From an uncultured Nitrososphaerota archaeon (GTDB lineage: Archaea; Thermoproteota; Nitrososphaeria; Nitrososphaerales; Gagatemarchaeaceae): DNA of 64,000 nt. Numbering within the stretch: the first letter of the stretch is position 1; every line of letters starts with the position of its first letter. The stretch lies in the NCBI GenBank assembly GCA_963718895.1, contig CAVRAG010000008.1:448001-512000 (forward strand). The letters are read 5' to 3'. The position numbers and the translations under genes were made by a program. The notes beneath the pieces are model-generated. The model worked only from the letters and a program-made list of their open reading frames with translations, was not told where the DNA came from and searched no databases. Below are positions 15,357-32,350 of this stretch, in pieces.

Positions 15357-16688
15357 CTAGATGCTCGTGACGATCAGATACGTGTTGAATATGAGGATCA
15401 GGGTGACGCTGACCAACGCGGCGAGCGTCGTGGCGTGACTGTTCACGAACTCCCCCATGAACTTCTTCTTGGAGGTGTAATAGACGAGGGGAATCATCGG
15501 CAGGGGGATCATCAGGCTCAGGACTACCTGACTGTAGACAAGCAGGTGGAGGGGATCGATTCCCAGCAGGACCGCGATGGTGGTGGGGAAGACGTTCACG
15601 AATCTCGTCACTATTCTCCTCGCCCAGATGTTCCAATGCTTGCCGATGAGCCCTTCCATTATCACCTGGCCCGCGATCGTCCCGAGGGTCGACGACGAGA
15701 GGCCCGATGCGAGAAGGGTCACGACGAAGACGGTGCCGACCACCGGCGCGAATATCGTCCCGAGCTGCGTCACAGCCTGCCCTATGGTGATGTTCACGTT
15801 AGGGTAGAGGGGAATCGCGACGAGCAGTATGCCTACGTTTACGATCCCGGCGATCGTCAGCATCACCACCGTCTCCCACTTATGGAGGTTCAGCGTCCTG
15901 TGTCTCTCCTCCGGTGTGAACTGATTGTCGCCCTCCTTCGCCCCGGGGATCTTCCTACCCGTGAGGTCCATCTTGTTCTTCGCCAGCCAGGAGTGAACGA
16001 ACAGGGCGTGGGGCATCACTGTCGCCCCGATTATTCCTACCACCAGAAGGAGAGCGTCGCTGCCCAGAGGGGCGATCGTGACCGAGTGGATTGCGACCTG
16101 GCCCAGATCGGGCTTGACGACGGCCAGCTGCCAGAGGAACCCGACGACGAGGACGCTGACGAGGAGCATGAACATCCGTTCTATGATGTGGTATCTCCGA
16201 GTCATCAATGTCATTATCAGCAGCACGTCCAGGGCGCCGAAGATGGCTGCGTACAGGAGAGGCACCCCGAAGAGCAGGTTCAGGGCTATCACGGTCCCGA
16301 GATACTCTGCTAGGTCGGTCGCAGTCGCGGCTGCCTCCGCGGCCAACCAATAGGGCACCACGAAAGCCTTTCGCACCAGCGAGCTCTTGACGAGTTCGGG
16401 CAGGGATCGGTCGGTGGCTATCCCGAGCTTGCCGGACAGGTACTGGAGAATCATGGCCATCGCCGAAGCGAGCCAGACCGCCCAGATGAGGTCGTACTTG
16501 AAACCGGCCCCGCCGGCCAGGTCTGTGCCGTAGTTGCCGGGGTCCATGTACGCTATTGACACCATCAGAGCTGGGCCTAGGTAGACGAGGAAATCGTGAA
16601 GACGACGGCGGGCCTCAGTCGGAGGCCGGATGGTTCCCTTGATGATGTCCTCCGGCGGTTCAAGTGTCCTCCTCTTGGGTCCACGCAT
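15357..16688 (-). CDS. mntH: Nramp family Mn2+/Fe2+ transporter
   Basis: AYMDPGNY and GATVMPH signature motifs, about 11 TM. Confidence 0.92.
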   Translation of the reverse strand: MRGPKRRTLEPPEDIIKGTIRPPTEARRRLHDFLVYLGPALMVSIAYMDPGNYGTDLAGGAGFKYDLIWAVWLASAMAMILQYLSGKLGIATDRSLPELVKSSLVRKAFVVPYWLAAEAAATATDLAEYLGTVIALNLLFGVPLLYAAIFGALDVLLIMTLMTRRYHIIERMFMLLVSVLVVGFLWQLAVVKPDLGQVAIHSVTIAPLGSDALLLVVGIIGATVMPHALFVHSWLAKNKMDLTGRKIPGAKEGDNQFTPEERHRTLNLHKWETVVMLTIAGIVNVGILLVAIPLYPNVNITIGQAVTQLGTIFAPVVGTVFVVTLLASGLSSSTLGTIAGQVIMEGLIGKHWNIWARRIVTRFVNVFPTTIAVLLGIDPLHLLVYSQVVLSLMIPLPMIPLVYYTSKKKFMGEFVNSHATTLAALVSVTLILIFNTYLIVTSI

Positions 16689-17480: not shown

Positions 17481-17921
17481 TCACGTTTCCAGCTTTTCTG
17501 CCATCGCAGCCAAGTAAGTCTGATTTTTCCGAAGAAAGTCCACCATCCGCTCTATCTTGTGAATTGTCATTGGGTGCAGGTAATGTTCGATTCCTTCAGC
17601 ATCTTCGTCCGCCACCCGTTTCTCCACGTCGATCATGGATAGAAACTCTGAGATTATTGCATGTCTTGAGATTACCGATTTTGCGATCTTCGCGCCCTCG
17701 TCCGTCAACCTGATGCTTCGGTAGGGCTCGTGCACCAGGTAATCCTTTGCGGCCAGTCTCCGCAGCATAATAGAGACCGTTGGGGGTCTGACTCGAAGCT
17801 TCTCTGCGATTTCTGCCGTGCTTGCATAGCCCTTTTCTTGGATCAGATGGTAGATTACCTCGAGGTAGTCTTCCAGCCTCGAATTCCCTCCTCGCTGCTC
17901 AGCCTGGTTAGCTCCCGCCAA
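17481..17921 (-). CDS. mntR: DtxR/MntR family metal-dependent repressor
   Basis: EDYLEVIY, IAEKL.V.PPTVS, LT..G...A....RH, DAEGIEH. Confidence 0.9.
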   Translation of the reverse strand: MAGANQAEQRGGNSRLEDYLEVIYHLIQEKGYASTAEIAEKLRVRPPTVSIMLRRLAAKDYLVHEPYRSIRLTDEGAKIAKSVISRHAIISEFLSMIDVEKRVADEDAEGIEHYLHPMTIHKIERMVDFLRKNQTYLAAMAEKLET

Positions 17922-18065: not shown

Positions 18066-19360
18066 ATGCGTGCGCCTTGGAGTCGGTCTCTGAAATCACC
18101 AGAGGAACTCGAGGCAGAGAAGGAGGAAAGGGTTCGCAACCACATTTCTCCGCGCGCCGTGCTCGTCTATCTCGGTCCCGCCCTGATTGTCAGCATGGCC
18201 TACATGGATCCGGGGAACTATGGGACAGACATCCAGAGCGGCGCTTCATTCGCGTACGACCTTCTGTGGGCGGTCTGGATGGCCAACCTGATGGCCATGG
18301 CGTTGCAGTACCTTTCCGGGAAGCTGGGAATTGCGACTGGGAAGGACCTCGCCCAGGCTAGGTCCGCGGATCCCTCAAGACGAGGAAGCTAATCATTCCC
18401 TATTGGCTGGCTGCAGAGGCAGCGGCGGCGGCGACGGACCTCGCCGAGTACCTGGGTACCGTCATCGCGCTCAACCTGCTCTTCGGGGTGCCCCTCCTGT
18501 ACGCAGCCATCTTCGGCGCGGGCGACGTGATTATCCTCCTGGCGCTGACGTCAAAACGCTTTCGGGTCATCGAATACTTCTTCATGCTCTTCGTTTCCAT
18601 GATAACCATAGGTTTTCTCTATCAGGTAATCCTGATAGGGCCGAACCTGTCTAACATCATGTACCACTCCGTTGCCGTGTCAATCAGCGGCAAGACCGTC
18701 CTGCTGGTGGTCGGGATAGTGGGCGCAACAGTGATGCCGCATGCGCTCTTCGTCCACTCCACGCTCACAAGGAACAAACTGACCACGGCGAGCATTGAGG
18801 AGAAGAGGAGGCACCGGAGGCTACACCTCAGGGAGGTCGTCGGTACCCTCACCATCGCCGGTCTCGTCAACGTCGCAATCCTCGTCTCGGCCGCGGCCGC
18901 TTTTCATGCCAACTACAGCGGTGTATCCACGATCAACCAGGCCTACGAAGTGATGGTGCCTCTGTACGGCTACCTTGCAGGTACCGTATTCGCACTGACG
19001 CTGCTCGCTTCGGGCCTCGCTTCTTCCACCACGGGCACGCTGGCGGGCATGGCCATGATGGATGGGCTGTTGGGGACTCATGTAAACAAGAACCTCCGTA
19101 GGATCGTGACGAGATTGATCAACGTCTTTCCCACCACGATCGCCGTCTTGATAGGGCTCAATCCTCTGTCACTGCTGATTTACAGCCAAGTGATTCTGAG
19201 CCTGATGATACCACTACCGATGATTCCTTTGATTATCTACACGAATAGTAGAAAGGTGATGGGCGAGTTCGTGAACAGGAAGATCACCACGATTCTTGGG
19301 ATTCTCTGTGCCGTCACCATCATCTCCCTGAACATCGCGCTGCTCTACAACGCGCTTTAG
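18066..19360 (+). pseudogene. mntH: Second Nramp transporter, split by a frameshift near 18360-18390
   Basis: AYMDPGNY in ORF 18066-18392; IPYWLAAEAA...GATVMPH continues in another frame to 19360. Confidence 0.85.
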
Positions 19361-19690: not shown

Positions 19691-20188
19691 CTAGGTCTTC
19701 ACCACTATTTCGCCTTGGTGGCTGGGGTGGTAGGAGCAGTAGTATGGGTAGACCCCAGGCTGAGTGAACGTGAAGGTGTACACTTGGTTATGGGACAAGT
19801 CTCCACCGGAGAATGTTCCGTTCACCGAGACCACATCGTGAACGATCGTATCCTGATTGACCCAGACCACAGTGTTGTTGACTCCAATCATGACCGTCAC
19901 GTTCCCGGGCTCGAACTGAGCGTAGGGATATCCCCACCCGTACGGTATGTAGACATAGGTCGCGTTGGGCGGAGGGACAGCCACAGAAGTCGTGGTCGTG
20001 CTGATTGAGGTAATGCTGCCATAGTTTGTGAAAGAGTACATCTGACTCGATATCGTCACCGTTCGTGAAGAGAGAGGATTGACGTAGACGAATGCGATCG
20101 TGGCGATGATTAGAATCAGAGCAACAAGAGGTCCTCCGTCGCGTTTGAGCGTTCGATTCCTTGTCTCGCGAGAGGTTTCCAAGTTCAC
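19691..20188 (-). CDS. Membrane-anchored cupredoxin (amicyanin/plastocyanin-like) with variant ligand loop
   Basis: N-terminal TM, W.N.D...HDV, YYCSYHPSHQG. Confidence 0.85.
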   Translation of the reverse strand: MNLETSRETRNRTLKRDGGPLVALILIIATIAFVYVNPLSSRTVTISSQMYSFTNYGSITSISTTTTSVAVPPPNATYVYIPYGWGYPYAQFEPGNVTVMIGVNNTVVWVNQDTIVHDVVSVNGTFSGGDLSHNQVYTFTFTQPGVYPYYCSYHPSHQGEIVVKT

Positions 20189-21677: not shown

Positions 21678-22172
21678 ATGAACTTGACCGAACTTCTGGA
21701 GGCGGAACATGCTTCTTTGCGCGTGTATTTCAGGCATCTTCGTTATCTGAATTCTGACTTTCTCTTTGAACTCGACGATTTCGTCACTAATTGCCATGCG
21801 AAAATCGAAGACGAAGTGGTCTTTCCGGAAATGAGGATGGCCCATGGGACCGAGGATAAGAATATTGAGAACATCACAAAGAGAATGGAAGAGGAGCACA
21901 AACTGCTTCAGATGCTCGGGAATAATCTGCGAACAATCGTCGCGGAAGGAAATGAGGAGCTTGACAAGAACAAGGTGCTGCTCTACGCGGATACCCTGGA
22001 ATCGCACAACTCAAGCGAAGAAACGCTTCTCTTCCCAAGTTGGGATAAGGTCAGTATTGAGAAGGAAAGTGAAGCGGCTTCTCGGGCTAGGGGAATCATC
22101 GACGGTTACGGGTTTGAACGTTATCTCAGGGTGACGGGGTTTTCACAGGAGTTCATGAACTTGCTGGAGTGA
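21678..22172 (+). CDS. Hemerythrin-like (HHE) domain protein
   Basis: L..EH, H...EDEVVFP, EEH, H...EE.LLFP. Confidence 0.85.
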   Translation: MNLTELLEAEHASLRVYFRHLRYLNSDFLFELDDFVTNCHAKIEDEVVFPEMRMAHGTEDKNIENITKRMEEEHKLLQMLGNNLRTIVAEGNEELDKNKVLLYADTLESHNSSEETLLFPSWDKVSIEKESEAASRARGIIDGYGFERYLRVTGFSQEFMNLLE

Positions 22173-24597: not shown

Positions 24598-25164
24598 TCA
24601 GTCGCCCCCTATGTTGCCGTGTCCACACCATCCAAACTCGTCCTGTCTGTTGTCACAAACGGGACATAGCTCGTCTAGGAACTTGACGTCAGCAGCTCGC
24701 TTGCCGAACCTTGCGAGGTGCGCGTCCACCAAATCTTCCACGCTCATGCTCCACCTGAAGCTGCTCTCTCCCTTCTCGAGCCGAATCATCGTTCCGACCA
24801 GGTAGGCGGCCGATTCTGACTTGGCTAGCAGGGGGGCGAGCCTTTCCTTGTACCAAGGCTCCAGTCCGGTCATATCCCCGGGGTTTTTGATCTCTTCAAG
24901 CGATGCTGCAGCTGAGGCCATCTGAGTAGTGAGGAGGTCTGCCATTGGAGAGCTTGCAATTCTCACGTAACTGGCAATCGCTTCGCAGTTCTTCAGGGCC
25001 GCTTCGGCGAGCCTGAGTCTTGTCGCGACCCGAACCGGCGCATCTGTCCGGTACCCGAGACAGTACTCGTGGAACGCTATCCCAATCTCAGACTTGGACC
25101 TCAGGACATCCTGTTCGAGCTCCTCGATCTGACCAAGTCGGCCCAATGTGTTCTCTCGCCTCAT
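24598..25164 (-). CDS. Hypothetical protein with C-terminal Zn-ribbon (CPVC...CGH), coupled to the ferredoxin gene
   Basis: ATGA overlap with ferredoxin stop; CPVCDNRQDEFGWCGH. Confidence 0.65.
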   Translation of the reverse strand: MRRENTLGRLGQIEELEQDVLRSKSEIGIAFHEYCLGYRTDAPVRVATRLRLAEAALKNCEAIASYVRIASSPMADLLTTQMASAAASLEEIKNPGDMTGLEPWYKERLAPLLAKSESAAYLVGTMIRLEKGESSFRWSMSVEDLVDAHLARFGKRAADVKFLDELCPVCDNRQDEFGWCGHGNIGGD

Positions 25165-25586
25165 GGTTGAGTTATCTTAATGCAGCTTGTGGGACAACTC
25201 ACCTCACAAGCCATGCAGAAGATGCAATCAGTTTCCCGGACGGGGTCAGACTTGTCGCAGCGATAGGCGACCCATTCGGCACTCCCCTGCGATACCTCCT
25301 TGTTCTTTCCAGTGCCTGCCTGACCGGGGTTGAGAGCCCACTCAAAGACGAAGACCGGGCACACGTCCATGCACACGCCGTCGGCTATGCAGTTCTCCCA
25401 GTCGACGCCAACGGCGGTGCCATGGATTCCACCGTTCGTCGGATACGCCTTGCCGTCACCGTCGTCCCTATGCATCCCGCCTGCTCGTATCTTGTGACCG
25501 AAGTGCTCGCCGCTGATGGGATACGCATCGGGTTTCTGCAAGAAACCAGGGTCTATTGGGTGGGTCTTGTAGTCCAGAGAGACCAA
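25161..25586 (-). CDS. zfx: Zinc-containing 7Fe ([3Fe-4S]/[4Fe-4S]) ferredoxin
   Basis: PIDP.F, GEH.GH, GIHGT.VGVDW, CIADGVCMDVCP, CIFCMACEVSCP; probable TTG start at 25586. Confidence 0.85.
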   Translation of the reverse strand: MVSLDYKTHPIDPGFLQKPDAYPISGEHFGHKIRAGGMHRDDGDGKAYPTNGGIHGTAVGVDWENCIADGVCMDVCPVFVFEWALNPGQAGTGKNKEVSQGSAEWVAYRCDKSDPVRETDCIFCMACEVSCPTSCIKITQP

Positions 25587-25625
25587 TACAAAATCATCGC
25601 GTGTTAGCGATGGTTTAACGTTGTG

Positions 25626-25640
25626 ATTACGTATGTATAC
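25626..25640. promoter_or_regulatory. Variant ATTAC-N4-GTA(T)AC box between the ferredoxin and DUF488 genes
   Basis: ATTACGTATGTATAC. Confidence 0.5.
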
Positions 25641-25670
25641 AGGTGTCGAGTTCATCCGTAAATAGCACGG

Positions 25671-26036
25671 ATGAGAGGATTGGTCATCCTGATCAAGATA
25701 GATAAGACCGTCTACGACCCTCCAGACCCATCTGACGGTAAGAGGATTCTCGTCATGCGGCTCTGGCCCCGAGGCATCGCAAAGAAGAAGATAGACGTCT
25801 GGATGAAAGACCTCGGGACCCCAAAGGAGGTCATCACCAAGTGGAAGGGACGAAAGATTACTTGGAAAACCTTCTCGACTGAATACGAGAAGAGTCTGAA
25901 GGGGAAGGAGGCGATTCTAAAAGAGCTGGCTGACGAGTCGCGCAAGAGTACGATCACCCTCCTTTGCACAGAAAAGGATGCGACTACCTGCCATCGATCT
26001 CTTCTCAAGGCTGCGATAGAGAAGCAGCTGCGATAA
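25671..26036 (+). CDS. DUF488/YeaO family protein
   Basis: VYDP...DG.RILVMRLWPRGI.K, W.KDLG, ITLLC...CHR. Confidence 0.85.
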   Translation: MRGLVILIKIDKTVYDPPDPSDGKRILVMRLWPRGIAKKKIDVWMKDLGTPKEVITKWKGRKITWKTFSTEYEKSLKGKEAILKELADESRKSTITLLCTEKDATTCHRSLLKAAIEKQLR

Positions 26037-26112: not shown

Positions 26113-26562
26113 TTGGTCAAGCGGCGCTACATCGGCATCATAGAGGTTGCTGTTGTCGTGTTCGTCATCGGCTCATTCTTCGCGTTCGCTAATCAGGCTC
26201 AACCCTCAACTGTTCACACTTCGACCAGTGTGGGAGAGATAATCGAGCCTGTGGGCGCTGGTCAGCCCCCCTCTAACTGGAGCTCTTCGACTGGTCCAAT
26301 CTACGCAGACACATCGTACTCACCAGATACCGTAGTAGTCGTGATAGGAGTCAACAACACGATTACTTGGGTGAACCAGGACTCGGCCCCGCATACTGTC
26401 ACCTTCACGGTTGTCCCTTCGGGGGTGACGGCGACGATAGATTCTGGGGAAATGGTGCACGGGGCCGCCTTCACCTATACCTTCCAGGTTCCGGGGACCT
26501 ACCTGTACGGCTGCACATACCATCCCTGGATGGGCGGCAAGGTCATAGTGAAGAACGCGTGA
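26113..26562 (+). CDS. Membrane-anchored type-1 copper cupredoxin
   Basis: N-terminal TM, WVNQDSAPHTVT, YGCTYHPWM. Confidence 0.88.
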   Translation: MVKRRYIGIIEVAVVVFVIGSFFAFANQAQPSTVHTSTSVGEIIEPVGAGQPPSNWSSSTGPIYADTSYSPDTVVVVIGVNNTITWVNQDSAPHTVTFTVVPSGVTATIDSGEMVHGAAFTYTFQVPGTYLYGCTYHPWMGGKVIVKNA

Positions 26563-26563
26563 G

Positions 26564-27601
26564 ATGTGTCAAAGACCCGTGCGCAGGCCAACCTTCCCAT
26601 CGCTTGTCAAATCGCCCGTGCTTCTAGGAATCGTCGTCTTCGCTTTCTCGATTGGATTCCCCCCGTTAGATGATCTCACGACAATCTACCTCACTCTTCA
26701 CATGCTCCAGCACACGGTGATTGTGGTCGCGGGAATCCTGATCGGGTACTACCTGTTCAGACGAGGGATCTTCTCCCGCCTTCGGGGGACGAGGGCACCC
26801 TCGATGGCTGTAGTCGGGATGGTCGCGCTCGTCATCTTCTGGCACCTTCCAATCTCCTGGGATGCCGCTATCCTCAATCCGGTCATTCACGCTCTCGAGC
26901 ACTTCTCATTTCTTCTGGTCGGCGTGCTGATCGGCTCGGTAGTTCTGATGGCCTCTGATCGCTCGAAGATTGGGCTCCTCATATTGGGTGCGGTCGGGCA
27001 GTTCGGTTACGGGTGGGCGCTCGTGTCCAATGTTCACGTCTATCCGCTGTATTCGCTATCTCAGCAGGCAGACTTGGGCGTGGCGATGCTGCTGGCCGGT
27101 CCCTTCTATTCAGCGGGAGCGCTGTACCTGGTTGCGAGGAACCAGGGATGGTTTGAGGAGAACCGACCAGGGTCCGTCACAAGGCTAGATGTCGCTCACT
27201 CATCAAAGCGGCGAGGGCTCGGCGTGGTAAGCGCTTCTCTGACCATTCTTCTGATAGCTACTCTGGTCGTTTACTACGGTGCCACCGCGACGGCCATAGG
27301 TTCCTCTCCTCGACAAGGATTGCCGGGCACATCCACCGTCTACATAGTCGAGACCCCACTTTCCTGGGGCTATTCCCCGCAAGACCTCAAGGTTGTGATA
27401 GGTGTTAACAATACGGTGACCTGGATCAGCCACTCGATCTCTTACGACACAATCACCAGCACAGGCGGTAACTTCTCCTCTGGACCCATAGCGCCGGGGC
27501 AGACGTTCACCTTCACGTTCTCAACACCAGGCGAGTACGGATACAAGTGCATCTACCACCCCTGGATGACGGGGGGAGTGGACGTTCTCGCCGGCCCTTA
27601 A
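26564..27601 (+). CDS. CtaG/DUF1404-like copper-insertion membrane protein fused to a C-terminal cupredoxin
   Basis: HMLQH, FWHLP, HALEHFSF motifs; C-terminal YKCIYHPWM. Confidence 0.8.
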   Translation: MCQRPVRRPTFPSLVKSPVLLGIVVFAFSIGFPPLDDLTTIYLTLHMLQHTVIVVAGILIGYYLFRRGIFSRLRGTRAPSMAVVGMVALVIFWHLPISWDAAILNPVIHALEHFSFLLVGVLIGSVVLMASDRSKIGLLILGAVGQFGYGWALVSNVHVYPLYSLSQQADLGVAMLLAGPFYSAGALYLVARNQGWFEENRPGSVTRLDVAHSSKRRGLGVVSASLTILLIATLVVYYGATATAIGSSPRQGLPGTSTVYIVETPLSWGYSPQDLKVVIGVNNTVTWISHSISYDTITSTGGNFSSGPIAPGQTFTFTFSTPGEYGYKCIYHPWMTGGVDVLAGP

Positions 27602-27650
27602 GGCGGTTTTTGCCTACCTTCACCTCGGAAATCCAGAGCCTGTGCCGACC

Positions 27651-29231
27651 CTAACCGTCATGAAGCTCGGATGTGGTCTTCGAACCTACTTGAGCAGCCG
27701 ACACAACTGGAACTTTCGGGCTTGTCGCTGGATCCACACTCAGCGACCCTCCCATCAACCCCTGGAAGGTGCCTCGCCATGCAGGCCCAAGCCCCGCCAA
27801 GATCTCTAACGCAAGCCAACCGGCCCCGATACCCAGGAGAACTATGAACGGGAACGAGACGAGAGAGTAGCCCTGCCACTGTGGGAGCCACGCGCTGTAT
27901 CGCCTCGGTATGCTCACAGCGCCGGCGACGAAGAAGCTGAGCACCATGCCCGTGCCTCCTACCACGTAAAACCACACTGCTATTCTGCTCATGCGGGACT
28001 CCACGATGCCCCCTATGTCCTTCACAAGGTAGTACAGGTAACCCAGCGTGAATATGGCGCTGCCCAGTATCATGTATGTGTGGAAATGAGCGGGCACCCA
28101 CATCGTGTTGTGCATTATCTGGTTGATGGGGATGACAGAATCCAGAATCCCGCCTATGCCTCCGAATGCCCAGCCCCAGAGGCCGACGAAGAGCATCAGC
28201 GCGGGGACGGTCCACTTGATTCCGGCGCGGTAGACCAGCGTGAGCCCGCCAAGGATGGTCACCAGCAGCGAAGGCAGGACCGAAAGGTCCGTGACGGCCT
28301 GGCCCAGCAGATTAGCCGCGGCGGGATTCACAAAAGCCTCGTAGGTGTGGTGCAGATATGCCCCGAGCACGAAGAACGTGATTAAGTTCCAGGCAAGGGC
28401 CGTGGGCCACGAAAGGTGCCATTTTCTGCCGACCAGCAAGGGAAGCACGGCGTAGACGACTCCCGCCGCCAGGTAGATCTGCAGGTTCACGTAATCGTGG
28501 GCGAACGAGTAGAGCAGGTTGTACATGGCCAGCGAGTTGAGCCCAACCACTAGGCCTCCAGCCTGAGCGTAGATAGCCAGCACGTAGATGGCTCCCTCGA
28601 GCGCACATGCTATCCCGATCACTGAGACCGTTGGTGCCACTATGTCAGCTGGTGTGACCTCAGGTTCGGGTTTCACCTTTCCGCCAGAACGGAGGAACCT
28701 CCAAGCCAGGAGGTTTCGGAGGCCTCCGAACTGCTTCCTGGCGGACGTGAGTATGTGGACCGAGTAGATCAGAAGGCCCACAGCGATAGCGGCGTAGCCC
28801 GCCAAGAAGGCCAGGGCAGACCAGAGCGTCCATGCACCTTGGGAGGAGAGTGGCAGCGGGTAAAGAACGGTGTATCCTGCAGCGAATCCTCCGAAGACGA
28901 CAGCGATTATCACGAAACCATCCCCGAGGGTGTAAATCAGGACTGCGCCCCAGAGCGTCCTCGCGCTGAGCTTGACTCTCTTGCTTGAGACGGCGGCGTA
29001 GGCGCCCATGCACAGGAGGAGGATTGAGCTTGTCATTCCTGCACCGTGTAGGGTCATGACCTGATAGTACAGCTCAGAGTTTAGCGTCAGTAGGCCGCCC
29101 TGGTCGAGCCGCATCACAACGCCGAGGAGCCCCATGAACAGGAAGACCAGGACGCTGACGACCATCGAGAATAGCGCCACCCTTACCACTGGCCCGTTCG
29201 ATCCATTCAGACTCTCGGGTTTTGCTTCCAA
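27651..29231 (-). CDS. Heme-copper oxidase superfamily subunit I, sNOR-type nitric oxide reductase (NorY-like)
   Basis: All six His ligands present (TLHG, AHDYVNLQIY, YLHH, PAHFH); Asn in place of the cross-link Tyr; probable TTG start at 29231. Confidence 0.82.
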   Translation of the reverse strand: MEAKPESLNGSNGPVVRVALFSMVVSVLVFLFMGLLGVVMRLDQGGLLTLNSELYYQVMTLHGAGMTSSILLLCMGAYAAVSSKRVKLSARTLWGAVLIYTLGDGFVIIAVVFGGFAAGYTVLYPLPLSSQGAWTLWSALAFLAGYAAIAVGLLIYSVHILTSARKQFGGLRNLLAWRFLRSGGKVKPEPEVTPADIVAPTVSVIGIACALEGAIYVLAIYAQAGGLVVGLNSLAMYNLLYSFAHDYVNLQIYLAAGVVYAVLPLLVGRKWHLSWPTALAWNLITFFVLGAYLHHTYEAFVNPAAANLLGQAVTDLSVLPSLLVTILGGLTLVYRAGIKWTVPALMLFVGLWGWAFGGIGGILDSVIPINQIMHNTMWVPAHFHTYMILGSAIFTLGYLYYLVKDIGGIVESRMSRIAVWFYVVGGTGMVLSFFVAGAVSIPRRYSAWLPQWQGYSLVSFPFIVLLGIGAGWLALEILAGLGPAWRGTFQGLMGGSLSVDPATSPKVPVVSAAQVGSKTTSELHDG

Positions 29232-29242
29232 ATCAGATCGCC

Positions 29243-29788
29243 CTACTGTGTAACCGTGAACGTGGTGATCATGAACGCGTGCCCTATGCCGCAATAGTCG
29301 AGGCATCGTACCGTGTAGGTACCAGTTTGATTGAAGTTCATGATGAGCTGATTCGTATAACCGGGGAGCACCTCCACTTGGCCGATGAGCACACCCTGGG
29401 CGTTGTAGACTGCGAAGTCGTGAACCACATCTTTGGAGGTGACATTGAACTCCACCGAAGTGTTCGCAGGTACCTGCCTGGTGCTCATCGTCCAGGACCA
29501 CTGTTGCCCAATCACGTTCACAACCTGCGTGGGCGGGCCGAGGGCCTCCGCCCTTTGAGGGGGATAGGGGAGAGAGACAAGGGTGAATATGAAAACGATT
29601 GCTGTCAGCGATATCAGGACGACTAGGACGTATCGTCGGTACGAACCCACCTTCTTGTAAGTGTTGTCGAAGGAATCCGTGGGCTTCTTCGCGCTCACCG
29701 CTATCCAGATGCAGAGCCCGCTCCAGATGGCGGCCATCACGGTGAATACGAGCAAGACCTCGATTTGGGGGGTCACCACAAATGTCAC
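29243..29788 (-). CDS. CuA-containing subunit II (NorS-like)
   Basis: Two TM helices, QQWSW, DVVHDF, CLDYCGIGHAFM CuA motif. Confidence 0.88.
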   Translation of the reverse strand: MTFVVTPQIEVLLVFTVMAAIWSGLCIWIAVSAKKPTDSFDNTYKKVGSYRRYVLVVLISLTAIVFIFTLVSLPYPPQRAEALGPPTQVVNVIGQQWSWTMSTRQVPANTSVEFNVTSKDVVHDFAVYNAQGVLIGQVEVLPGYTNQLIMNFNQTGTYTVRCLDYCGIGHAFMITTFTVTQ

Positions 29789-29875
29789 TTCACTCCCTCC
29801 TGTCTTGGAACTTCAGTCGAAGACAAGTGTCGCGTCTCCGGCGCAGGCCATCAATAGCGATTTTGAGTGCTGCGC

Positions 29876-30001: not shown

Positions 30002-30397
30002 TCAAGTGCCTGACGGTGAGATTCCTTTTGGTCGTCCTTTCGCCACGTCGGTCTGCTCTGCTCTTCGCACGACCACCAAGCTGATTAGTGCAGCAGTCGC
30101 GACTACCTCGCCGCCATCCACCTTTGTCCCGTAGGTCTTGAGGGAGAGGAGCGCTGGTGGATTGAGGGCCTCACCCGTCTCCAGCCTGAACTGGGAAAGG
30201 TGCGCCGGACAAACTATGGAGTCGTCCATGAGGAATCCATCCACAAGTTCGACATGCTCATGTGTGCAGATATTGGAGACAGCGTAGAACGCGGCTGTAT
30301 AGTTGACGACGAGGATGCTTTCACCCCAGATATTCACAGCGACCTTCTCGCCCGGAGACAAGTCTGAAACACTGCAGACTCTTGCTAACCTTGTCAT
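30002..30397 (-). CDS. Rieske-type [2Fe-2S] ferredoxin
   Basis: CTHE...CPAH...F.L.TG motifs; the last ~25 aa may be read-through. Confidence 0.88.
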   Translation of the reverse strand: MTRLARVCSVSDLSPGEKVAVNIWGESILVVNYTAAFYAVSNICTHEHVELVDGFLMDDSIVCPAHLSQFRLETGEALNPPALLSLKTYGTKVDGGEVVATAALISLVVVRRAEQTDVAKGRPKGISPSGT

Positions 30398-30620: not shown

Positions 30621-31091
30621 CTACCGCGCTTTAATCCCGGTCTTGAGCTTGAGATACTTCCCGACCAGCAGAGCAGCGGGATAGAGGATCTCTTCCTCGT
30701 TCTTGGCATGAAGGGCGAGTTGCTCCGCGAAGCGAACGTATTCGGAACCGTCAGATCGCTCAGCCGCGACCTTAAGGGAATCAAGCGCTGTGATTATCTG
30801 CTTATGTTCCAGGAGCATCTGTGGAAGCTCTTTCTGGAGCCTGTCCGTCATTGAAATCACAGCCCGAATATCAGGCTCGGACTCGCCTTCCGCCAAAGCG
30901 GGCAGCAGAGCCAAGGGTGGTAAAGCGTACTCTTCCTCCTTGGCGAAGTGGGGGTGTAAGATCTTCGCCACATTCCTGGCTGCCTCCCCGACGTCGCCGG
31001 GAGCTCTTGAGGCCCTCCGAAGCTCCCGATGCAACTCTTCATGCTCCATCTCGACCGAGTCAGGTACCTTCCAAGATTTCTTGTGCGTCAT
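30621..31091 (-). CDS. Hemerythrin-like (HHE) domain protein
   Basis: EHEELH, HFAKEEE, EHKQI, HAKNEEEILYP. Confidence 0.85.
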   Translation of the reverse strand: MTHKKSWKVPDSVEMEHEELHRELRRASRAPGDVGEAARNVAKILHPHFAKEEEYALPPLALLPALAEGESEPDIRAVISMTDRLQKELPQMLLEHKQIITALDSLKVAAERSDGSEYVRFAEQLALHAKNEEEILYPAALLVGKYLKLKTGIKAR

Positions 31092-31558
31092 TCTGTCACT
31101 TTCGCTTGGGGTCCTTGTGCACTCTTCTTGTTAAGGGCATCAGCCTTCAGGGCAAGGGGGAAGGTTATCCTTTCCTCTTCGGCATGGTGCTTCCTGAGGT
31201 CGTTGACGAAGATCTGAATCTCTCTCCGGGCAACAGAATCAGGTAGGGTTGGCATGCTTGGTAGGGTGCTCTTGAAGAAACTAGCCAGCTCCCTGTGCCA
31301 ACGCATGATGCTGATGCTCGGCTGAGACTCCTCCTCTAGCTCCCACACTATTGTTCGCATCAGTCTTGCCTCTTCCTCGACTGCGTGCCGAAGCATGACC
31401 TCCCTGATGGAGCTTAGCAGGCTCTCGGCGACTTTCAGGTCGCCGTTCTTGCTCTCCTCGTAAATCTTGGCGAGTTTGGGTTCGATCTCCTTGTGTTCAT
31501 TCTCTAGCCTCTTCACTACCTTCTCGAGAGGCTCGTCGTAGTCCAGCGTGTAGCTCAT
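31088..31558 (-). CDS. Hemerythrin-like (HHE) domain protein
   Basis: ENEH, HAVEEE, RWH, HHAEEERITFP. Confidence 0.82.
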   Translation of the reverse strand: MSYTLDYDEPLEKVVKRLENEHKEIEPKLAKIYEESKNGDLKVAESLLSSIREVMLRHAVEEEARLMRTIVWELEEESQPSISIMRWHRELASFFKSTLPSMPTLPDSVARREIQIFVNDLRKHHAEEERITFPLALKADALNKKSAQGPQAKVTE

Positions 31559-31859: not shown

Positions 31860-32350
31860 CTACGTACACTATCTAAGTCCGGTCACACGGGCGAAAGGCG
31901 TAAGCCTATGCAGCTTGCCGGGTTTTCCACTCGAGATATGGACGGCTCTTATTTCCCTCACCGTGAGAGCATCCGCGACGAGCGAGCGGTGGCACCTGTA
32001 CGGGCTTCCCCTCTGCGCACATCATTGCCACAGCGCCATCTCTGGAGAGAGCGGATCAGCTTCTCCAATCCGGCCTTGAACTCTTCCGTCTGCAAGTAGT
32101 CTGCATAACCCCGAAAGCCCGGGTTCCTCCACCCGGTGTTCTCGGAGTCCCTCAAAGGACGTCTGAGACCTCCGAGCTCTTTCAGGTGGATGTACCTGAT
32201 TCCGGTTTCAGTGACTCTTCGAGCGCCTCAGAGTTGAACTGAGGATTGTGGCTGGAAGGGGGAATCTTCCGTATGTCAACAAGTATCGTGATTGTGCGCA
32301 AGGAGGATTCTGACGAACCTTTCGACAGATAGGGTCGAATGGCCGATTAG
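31860..32350 (-). pseudogene. Degraded DUF488 (long type) gene
   Basis: IGHST...LVDIR..P.S.HNPQFN, LGGLR, WRNPGFRGYADY across broken frames. Confidence 0.7.

Follow-up and report, generated by a model that had tools for sequence, protein, structure and literature searches.

Two adjacent genes for a CuA-type heme-copper enzyme

In the window, a 64,000-nucleotide stretch of an uncultured archaeal genome (contig CAVRAG010000008.1, positions 448,001 to 512,000), two adjacent minus-strand genes fill positions 27651-29788 and encode subunit II and then subunit I of a heme-copper enzyme. The original prediction, made from the sequence alone, had read the pair as an sNOR-type nitric oxide (NO) reductase resembling a cytochrome c oxidase, and the layout it described, a two-gene operon of a CuA subunit II and a subunit I with six histidine ligands, was borne out on the minus strand. 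A 2024 survey defined sNOR as a heme-copper family that is related to the B family, contains CuA, and is without the active-site Tyr (PMC11214002, Murali et al. 2024). The two genes are as follows.

29788-29243, minus strand: predicted sNOR subunit II (NorS-like, CuA cupredoxin domain), with two N-terminal hydrophobic stretches
29231-27651, minus strand: predicted sNOR subunit I (NorY-like catalytic heme-copper subunit), 526 amino acids, putative TTG start

Subunit II starts at a GTG codon with GGAGG 7 nt ahead and matched PF00116 (COX2; E 1.4e-11) and TIGR02866 (E 1.3e-22, under the cut-off of that model). Its C-terminal domain carries the CuA ligand set H113 and C-x3-C-x3-H-x2-M, which pairs one-to-one with the ligands of subunit II of the Thermus ba3 oxidase. 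Subunit I matched PF00115 (COX1; E 8e-42). Its longest open reading frame (ORF), 29501-27651, shares 259 nt with subunit II, and the start formerly placed at 29501 was corrected to near 29231. The TTG at 29231 is most likely the true start; a 65% identical homolog of subunit I on a metagenome contig (locus L093) begins at the equivalent residues. With this start subunit I begins 9 nt past the stop of subunit II, and the pairing of a catalytic subunit with a CuA subunit encoded beside it is as in the sNOR family.

Active-site residues and family placement

All six His ligands were kept in subunit I (H62, H245, H294, H295, H374, and H384), each in a conserved alignment column. Helix VI reads H245-D-Y-V-N249-L-Q-I-Y253. 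The best match of subunit I among PDB sequences was the ba3 oxidase of Thermus thermophilus (E 1e-11), and the phmmer alignment paired N249 with its cross-linked Tyr237, in agreement with the earlier claim that Asn replaces the cross-linked Tyr in the helix VI motif HDYVNLQIY. The H-x3-Y motif of B-family O2 reductases is accordingly interrupted by Asn at the Tyr place. Among 171 full-length homologs (cluster duplicates counted), the Tyr237 column held Asn in 151, Tyr in 15, Ser in 2, a gap in 2, and Ile in 1, and the column four residues on (N+4) was Tyr in 148; the Asn is therefore not a chance substitution. Y253 (N+4), Y260 (N+11), and T325 of helix VIII were invariant among the 24 sequences of one alignment.

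These residues were compared with those tabulated for the NO reductase families in Dataset S1 of the survey (PMC11214002), where the sNOR of Bacillus azotoformans has N243, Y247, Y254, E255, and T319, and bNOR has N245 and Y248. Subunit I fits the sNOR column at the six His, N249, Y253, Y260, and T325, and with Ile at N+3 and Tyr at N+4 it lacks the bNOR arrangement. The combination of H-x3-N-x3-Y with a CuA subunit, put forward beforehand as the sNOR signature, agrees with the same table (N243, Y247). An AlphaFold2 model of subunit I (mean pLDDT 87.8) showed the heme-copper oxidase fold; Foldseek comparison of the model with PDB structures retrieved A- and B-family oxidases alike (TM 0.66-0.78) and does not separate the families.

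Homologs were collected by a word-indexed search of 5.8 billion proteins (102 matches at E <= 0.001 among 7999 candidates scored) and an exhaustive HMMER search of 1.84 billion representatives (608 matches at E <= 0.001, of which 58 at <= 1e-30). One of them, P0050 (accession OQY90785.1), matched subunit I with E 2.2e-117 and 42% identity and is an SNOR leaf of the tree in Dataset S4 of the survey (PMC11214002); it is the one published sNOR reference tied to the present trees by accession. In a 94-row quick IQ-TREE (LG+C20 PMSF), the archaeal protein and the environmental sequences P0003-P0005 formed a clade (SH-aLRT 100) within a 25-row clade (100) shared with P0050, Gemmatimonadota, Chloroflexota, and Thermomicrobium, which in turn lay within a 66-row clade (98). 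The Tyr237 column of the 66-row clade held Asn in 62 rows, Ser in 2, His in 1, and Gln in 1 long-branch row, and its sister was a Tyr-bearing group with the motif GHPVVY. The topology was the same in a 60-row quick tree with long branches removed. An LG+F+G4 tree with 1000 ultrafast bootstraps, read from its newick file and checked separately for monophyly, gave 100 for the archaeal clade, for a 22-row subclade, and for the Asn/Tyr split; the archaeal protein stood outside the GHPVVY group in all three trees.

Because of the 42% identity to OQY90785.1 and the nesting in the Asn-bearing clade in three trees, the protein is assigned by sequence to the sNOR family and not to the B-family O2 reductases. 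The phylogeny suggested with the original prediction, which asked whether subunit I nests within the B-family O2 reductases, thus placed it with the published reference and apart from the Tyr-bearing rows. As also foreseen, automatic annotation would favor a coxAB label, since public homologs are named "cytochrome c oxidase subunit 1" and "cbb3-type cytochrome c oxidase subunit I".

Host, neighboring genes, and distribution

The host genome comprises 3.13 Mb in 11 contigs and is 80.5% complete with a contamination estimate of 5.4%. Genes for TFIIB, TrmB, and an archaeal TRASH-domain regulator lie within the window, and the best named homologs of its TrpE were from a "Thaumarchaeota archaeon" (88%) and a "Nitrososphaerales archaeon" (87%), which together upheld the archaeal origin of the contig. 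Archaeal AmoA (PF12942) had no match in the host genome, where that control was silent and the profile was later validated on relatives; among the 24 other genomes of the host's family none had it either, and it occurs in 4 further families of that order. One further heme-copper enzyme was found in the genome, a 792-codon open frame that groups with the A-type oxidases of congeners, and the host, an aerobe, has coxAC of the A type. Contig GC contents ranged from 0.57 to 0.61; such a GC content, the large genome, and the fusion of coxAC agree with what is reported for the Gagatemarchaeaceae (Group I.1c) (PMC10640624), a source that nowhere mentions NO. By its gene content, the host is a non-ammonia-oxidizing Nitrososphaerales archaeon with Group I.1c-like features, for which the family name is presumed.

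The genes flanking the operon are listed below.

26113-26562, plus strand: membrane-anchored blue-copper protein (amicyanin/plastocyanin-like; PF13473, PF00127), candidate electron donor to CuA
26564-27601, plus strand: DUF1404/Caa3_CtaG-like membrane domain fused to a cupredoxin, candidate copper-center assembly factor
30002-30397, minus strand: Rieske [2Fe-2S] ferredoxin (PF00355, E 3.5e-17), 213 nt upstream of subunit II
30621-31091 and 31088-31558, minus strand: two overlapping hemerythrin/HHE di-iron genes (PF01814, E 3e-9 and 7e-11), upstream of the operon

Both cupredoxin genes are convergent on the operon. The blue-copper protein, with a hydrophobic stretch at the N terminus and the copper motif C-x2-H-x2-M, resembled amicyanin (TIGR02657, E 8e-15, under cut-off); its adjacency makes it a candidate donor to CuA. 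The fusion protein matched PF07185 (E 1e-13), PF09678 (E 4e-6, just under cut-off), and Cupredoxin_1, and was 49-53% identical to genes of three congeners (G009, G012, and G003). In G009 the homolog adjoins coxB-coxAC, and the 19-kb regions of G012 and G003 held no oxidase match. By these likenesses the fusion gene is a host-type paralog and not part of the transferred DNA. A second CtaG-cupredoxin paralog lies elsewhere in the same genome (G000 C7:235441-236441), matching at query residues 19-187 and 216-343, and is maybe split or frameshifted.

Among bacterial sNOR loci, 6 of 12 (L003, L004, L014, L017, L020, and L024) have a Caa3_CtaG gene that lies where subunit I ends or directly behind it, and in L003 a cytochrome c gene precedes COX2, giving the bacterial pattern (cytochrome c)-COX2-COX1-CtaG. 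A formate/nitrite transporter gene directly follows subunit I in a Thermomicrobium locus (L020:9741-10598), and an Rrf2-family regulator lies near a Planctomycetota locus (L031:10498-11022); these neighbors fit a nitrogen-oxide role of bacterial sNORs. The cytochrome c domain PF13442 had no match in the 80.5%-complete host genome, the control having matched in 7 of 14 genomes, and no c-type cytochrome was found there. With two cupredoxin genes adjacent to the operon and no PF13442 in the genome, the proposal that copper proteins replace cytochrome c as electron donors remains plausible.

Upstream of the operon, the same-strand order comprises the two hemerythrin genes, a small ORF, and the Rieske ferredoxin. 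The Rieske gene was not present at L093, the one related locus with upstream sequence, and its link to the sNOR, drawn from position, is uncertain. The hemerythrin genes resembled the RIC/YtfE repair family weakly (E about 2e-3, far under cut-off); their position makes a role in handling NO or O2 possible. The wider region is rich in small metal proteins, with a third cupredoxin at 19691-20188, a third hemerythrin-domain gene at 21678-22172, and a zinc-ferredoxin-like gene at 25161-25655 (NF041165, E 1e-64, under cut-off). Further away lie a complete Nramp gene at 15357-16688 (minus strand), a DtxR-type iron-dependent repressor gene at 17481-17921 (minus strand), and a second Nramp ORF at 18488-19360 (plus strand), which covers profile positions 89-356 only and whose start may be truncated or miscalled.

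The distribution of the enzyme is patchy. No sNOR homolog above 28% identity was found in 40 relatives of the host, 22 of them of the same genus. When one genome of each GTDB species was scanned by pattern, 565 relatives came up; among the matches listed, the top full-length ones came from a Chloroflexi metagenome-assembled genome (49%) and a Gemmatimonadaceae genome (48%), and an archaeon ("Methanomicrobiales") was named in 1 of the 80 titles kept. That entry (L013) is a 5774-bp digester contig titled Methanomicrobiales archaeon, with a CtaG gene and an sNOR identical to P0137. This sNOR is shared by 10 contigs, among them one of 2.7 Mb, and the archaeal label is probably a binning error. The closest relatives, at 65-72% identity, were environmental sequences only (P0003-P0005 and L093), and the nearest kin beyond this small clade were Chloroflexota and Gemmatimonadota at about 48%. 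At L093 the same two-gene operon is preceded by a DUF488 gene. A broken DUF488-like remnant at about 31890-32218 (minus strand), found as two tblastn pieces upstream of the hemerythrin genes, matches the intact L093 gene, and an intact DUF488 gene lies at 25671-26036. Where an empty insertion site was sought by synteny with congeners, only the CtaG-cupredoxin gene matched and no site was definable.

Proposed function, alternatives, and known systems

The locus probably encodes a two-subunit sNOR-type heme-copper enzyme of bacterial origin by transfer, which would reduce NO to nitrous oxide (N2O) with electrons from a copper-protein donor in a non-ammonia-oxidizing Nitrososphaerales archaeon. 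The membrane-anchored blue-copper protein from the adjacent gene would hand electrons to CuA, from where they would reach, by way of the low-spin heme, the binuclear center, the presumed site of the conversion of 2 NO to N2O. The Asn would stand in for the His-cross-linked Tyr that O2 reduction needs, and the non-heme metal of sNOR is expected to be Fe (PMC11214002). The host-type CtaG-cupredoxin fusion probably loads the copper centers. Physiologically, the enzyme would most likely remove or respire NO from neighboring organisms or from chemistry, or act as an auxiliary electron sink. Scavenging of external NO is preferred to closing of a denitrification chain because no nitrite, nitrate, or N2O reductase was found. 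The sNOR genes of Nitrosococcus oceani were induced by ammonium or hydroxylamine, expression data being available for bacterial ammonia oxidizers only (PMC3772326).

Several observations weigh against this interpretation. The 80.5%-complete genome yielded no nirK, nirS, narG, cNOR, or qNOR and no Rrf2/NsrR regulator, and no match to the nosZ propeller (PF18764), for which the control was also silent; the earlier remark that the window shows neither nirK nor nirS thus extends to the genome as assembled. With nirK, nirS, narG, nosZ, and Rrf2/NsrR all missing from what was found, no internal NO source or sensor backs a nitrogen-oxide role. The survey calls sNOR a "proposed" NO reductase (PMC11214002), and no purified or assayed sNOR is reported in the texts consulted. 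The trees were built without bNOR, eNOR, gNOR, nNOR, and sequences of sNOR from ammonia-oxidizing bacteria. In subunit I, the position of E255, described as conserved in sNOR and as a putative proton-channel residue (PMC11214002), is occupied by Ala (A261). In addition, the other 58 Asn-bearing rows all have K237 and D299, which the archaeal clade replaces by Tyr in 4 of 4 sequences and by Ala or Asn, respectively, so that the properties of this clade may differ.

Glu or Asp occupied the E255 column in 26 of 62 Asn-bearing rows of the 94-row table and in 0 of the 25 rows of the subclade of the archaeal protein, and the published reference OQY90785.1 itself has Gly there. The glutamate thus appears from the alignment to be specific to a subclade and not family-wide, and A261 does not exclude membership because the whole 25-row subclade, OQY90785.1 included, is without it. 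The residues aligned with K237 and D299 in ba3 are Arg and Asp, and the change may have removed an ion pair close to the active site; the paired loss could mark an archaeal-specific shift in proton or heme-propionate handling.

An alternative in which the fold was kept and the chemistry altered or lost, the enzyme acting on other small nitrogen or oxygen species or being a decaying acquisition, was considered unlikely. It draws on the replacement of K237 and D299, a pair kept in 58 of 58 other Asn-bearing rows, the absence of E255, the lack of partner nitrogen-cycle genes in the genome, and the occurrence of the gene in none of the 22 congeners searched. Both reading frames are intact, however, every metal ligand is retained, and host-type assembly and donor genes adjoin the operon. 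The five sequences of the clade (that of the window, P0003-P0005, and L093) keep every active-site residue at 65-72% identity, which argues for purifying selection.

A working O2 reductase, that is, a divergent B-family oxidase that does without the helix VI Tyr and perhaps uses another aromatic residue, was judged slightly less probable again. In its favor are the ba3 oxidase as the nearest solved structure in sequence, the aerobic host with its A-type coxAC, a conserved Tyr after the His pair (HH-x-Y297), and the weak cross-reaction between O2 reductases and NO reductases (PMC11214002). Such an enzyme is opposed by the Asn at the cross-link position, since a redox-active Tyr is required for O2 reduction (PMC11214002), and by the trees, in which the protein nests in the Asn-bearing clade with the published sNOR reference and every row with Tyr lies outside. 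Six residues before the His pair, where the C family carries its Tyr, subunit I has Val.

That bacterial DNA was misjoined to or misbinned with an archaeal genome is highly improbable, even though the nearest named relatives are bacterial, the gene is missing from the 40 relatives searched, the contamination estimate is 5.4%, and contig L013 (Methanomicrobiales) seems to be an instance of this kind. Against such a misjoin, the operon is embedded between archaeal genes, 475 kb deep in a 1.61-Mb contig, its composition is no outlier (GC 0.59 and 0.55 versus 0.594 for the contig; tetranucleotide distance at the 80th percentile of 732 windows), and the neighboring CtaG-cupredoxin gene has its 49-53% identical counterparts in congeners. 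Sequencing runs on soil and peat from three studies, one run maybe being the source sample, yielded short, near-identical unitigs that span the gene junctions and bridge 27540-27690 (CtaG-cupredoxin gene to subunit I) and 29721-29871 (upstream of subunit II), and an assembly artefact is unlikely. The gene is likely of bacterial origin, brought by horizontal transfer into a small thaumarchaeal lineage and since ameliorated.

The sNOR interpretation concerns an enzyme class that is already known and a family that is published; what sets the locus apart is the host and the presumed copper rewiring. According to the survey, sNOR is present but rare in Archaea, and ammonia-oxidizing bacteria carry it while archaeal ammonia oxidizers are without an NO reductase (PMC11214002), an absence that has been taken as a key contrast between the two groups. 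The word "Nitrososphaerales" had no occurrence in a word count of the per-genome NO reductase table in Dataset S8 of that source, a count that did not cover Dataset S6 (PMC11214002), and no link between sNOR and Thaumarchaeota appeared in titles or abstracts among the matches listed. That a Nitrososphaerales genome, albeit of a non-ammonia oxidizer, holds an intact sNOR widens the host range of the family and offers a concrete candidate by which the abundant Thaumarchaeota of acid soils might consume NO or release N2O. The locus also illustrates how a cytochrome c-fed bacterial enzyme may be fitted into a copper-based archaeal electron chain. More tentatively, and with somewhat less than even confidence, a soil lineage of the Group I.1c type might have taken up a bacterial sNOR, rewired it to blue-copper carriers and a host-type copper-assembly factor, and now consume NO and emit N2O. 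If this were true, non-ammonia-oxidizing Nitrososphaerales would act in acidic soils and peat as a so far unrecognized sink for NO and source of N2O, and the enzyme would be the first heme-copper NO reductase in the order that holds the ammonia-oxidizing archaea.

Among known systems, the sNOR reference OQY90785.1 of Anaerolineae bacterium UTCFX1 shares the CuA subunit II beside subunit I, the Asn, the Tyr residues at N+4 and N+11, and the helix VIII Thr, besides the 42% identity and a place in the same well-supported clade. In comparison to bacterial sNORs, the present locus has an archaeal host, cupredoxin genes where bacterial loci have cytochrome c, replacements of K237 and D299, and a CtaG-like gene that is host-type, fused to a cupredoxin, and convergent with the operon rather than downstream of it. 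The NorS-NorY-SenC genes of Nitrosococcus oceani (Noc2971-2969), which go by the same family name, are alike in the order of subunit II before subunit I and in a nearby copper-assembly gene (PMC3772326). The loci of ammonia-oxidizing bacteria differ in the presence of SenC/SCO and are described as cytochrome c-linked (PMC3772326), whereas no SCO gene was seen beside the present operon and its host is without amoA.

The bNOR (CuA-NOR) of Bacillus/Schinkia azotoformans likewise has a CuA subunit and sNOR-like active-site residues with Asn in place of Tyr, and its NO reductase activity has been demonstrated and is electrogenic (PMC11214002). It is unrelated to sNOR by descent, is confined to Bacillales (PMC11214002), and carries its Tyr at N+3 (N245/Y248), in contrast to Ile at N+3 and Tyr at N+4 in the archaeal protein. 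The B-family ba3 oxidase of Thermus (PDB 1xme, 3s8f) is alike in fold and metal ligands, with E 1e-11 to 1e-9 for subunit I and about 3e-12 for subunit II, for both of which it is the closest solved structure by sequence. It differs in its H233-Y237 cross-link pair, where the archaeal subunit I has Asn, and the identity in the structural alignment was about 21%.

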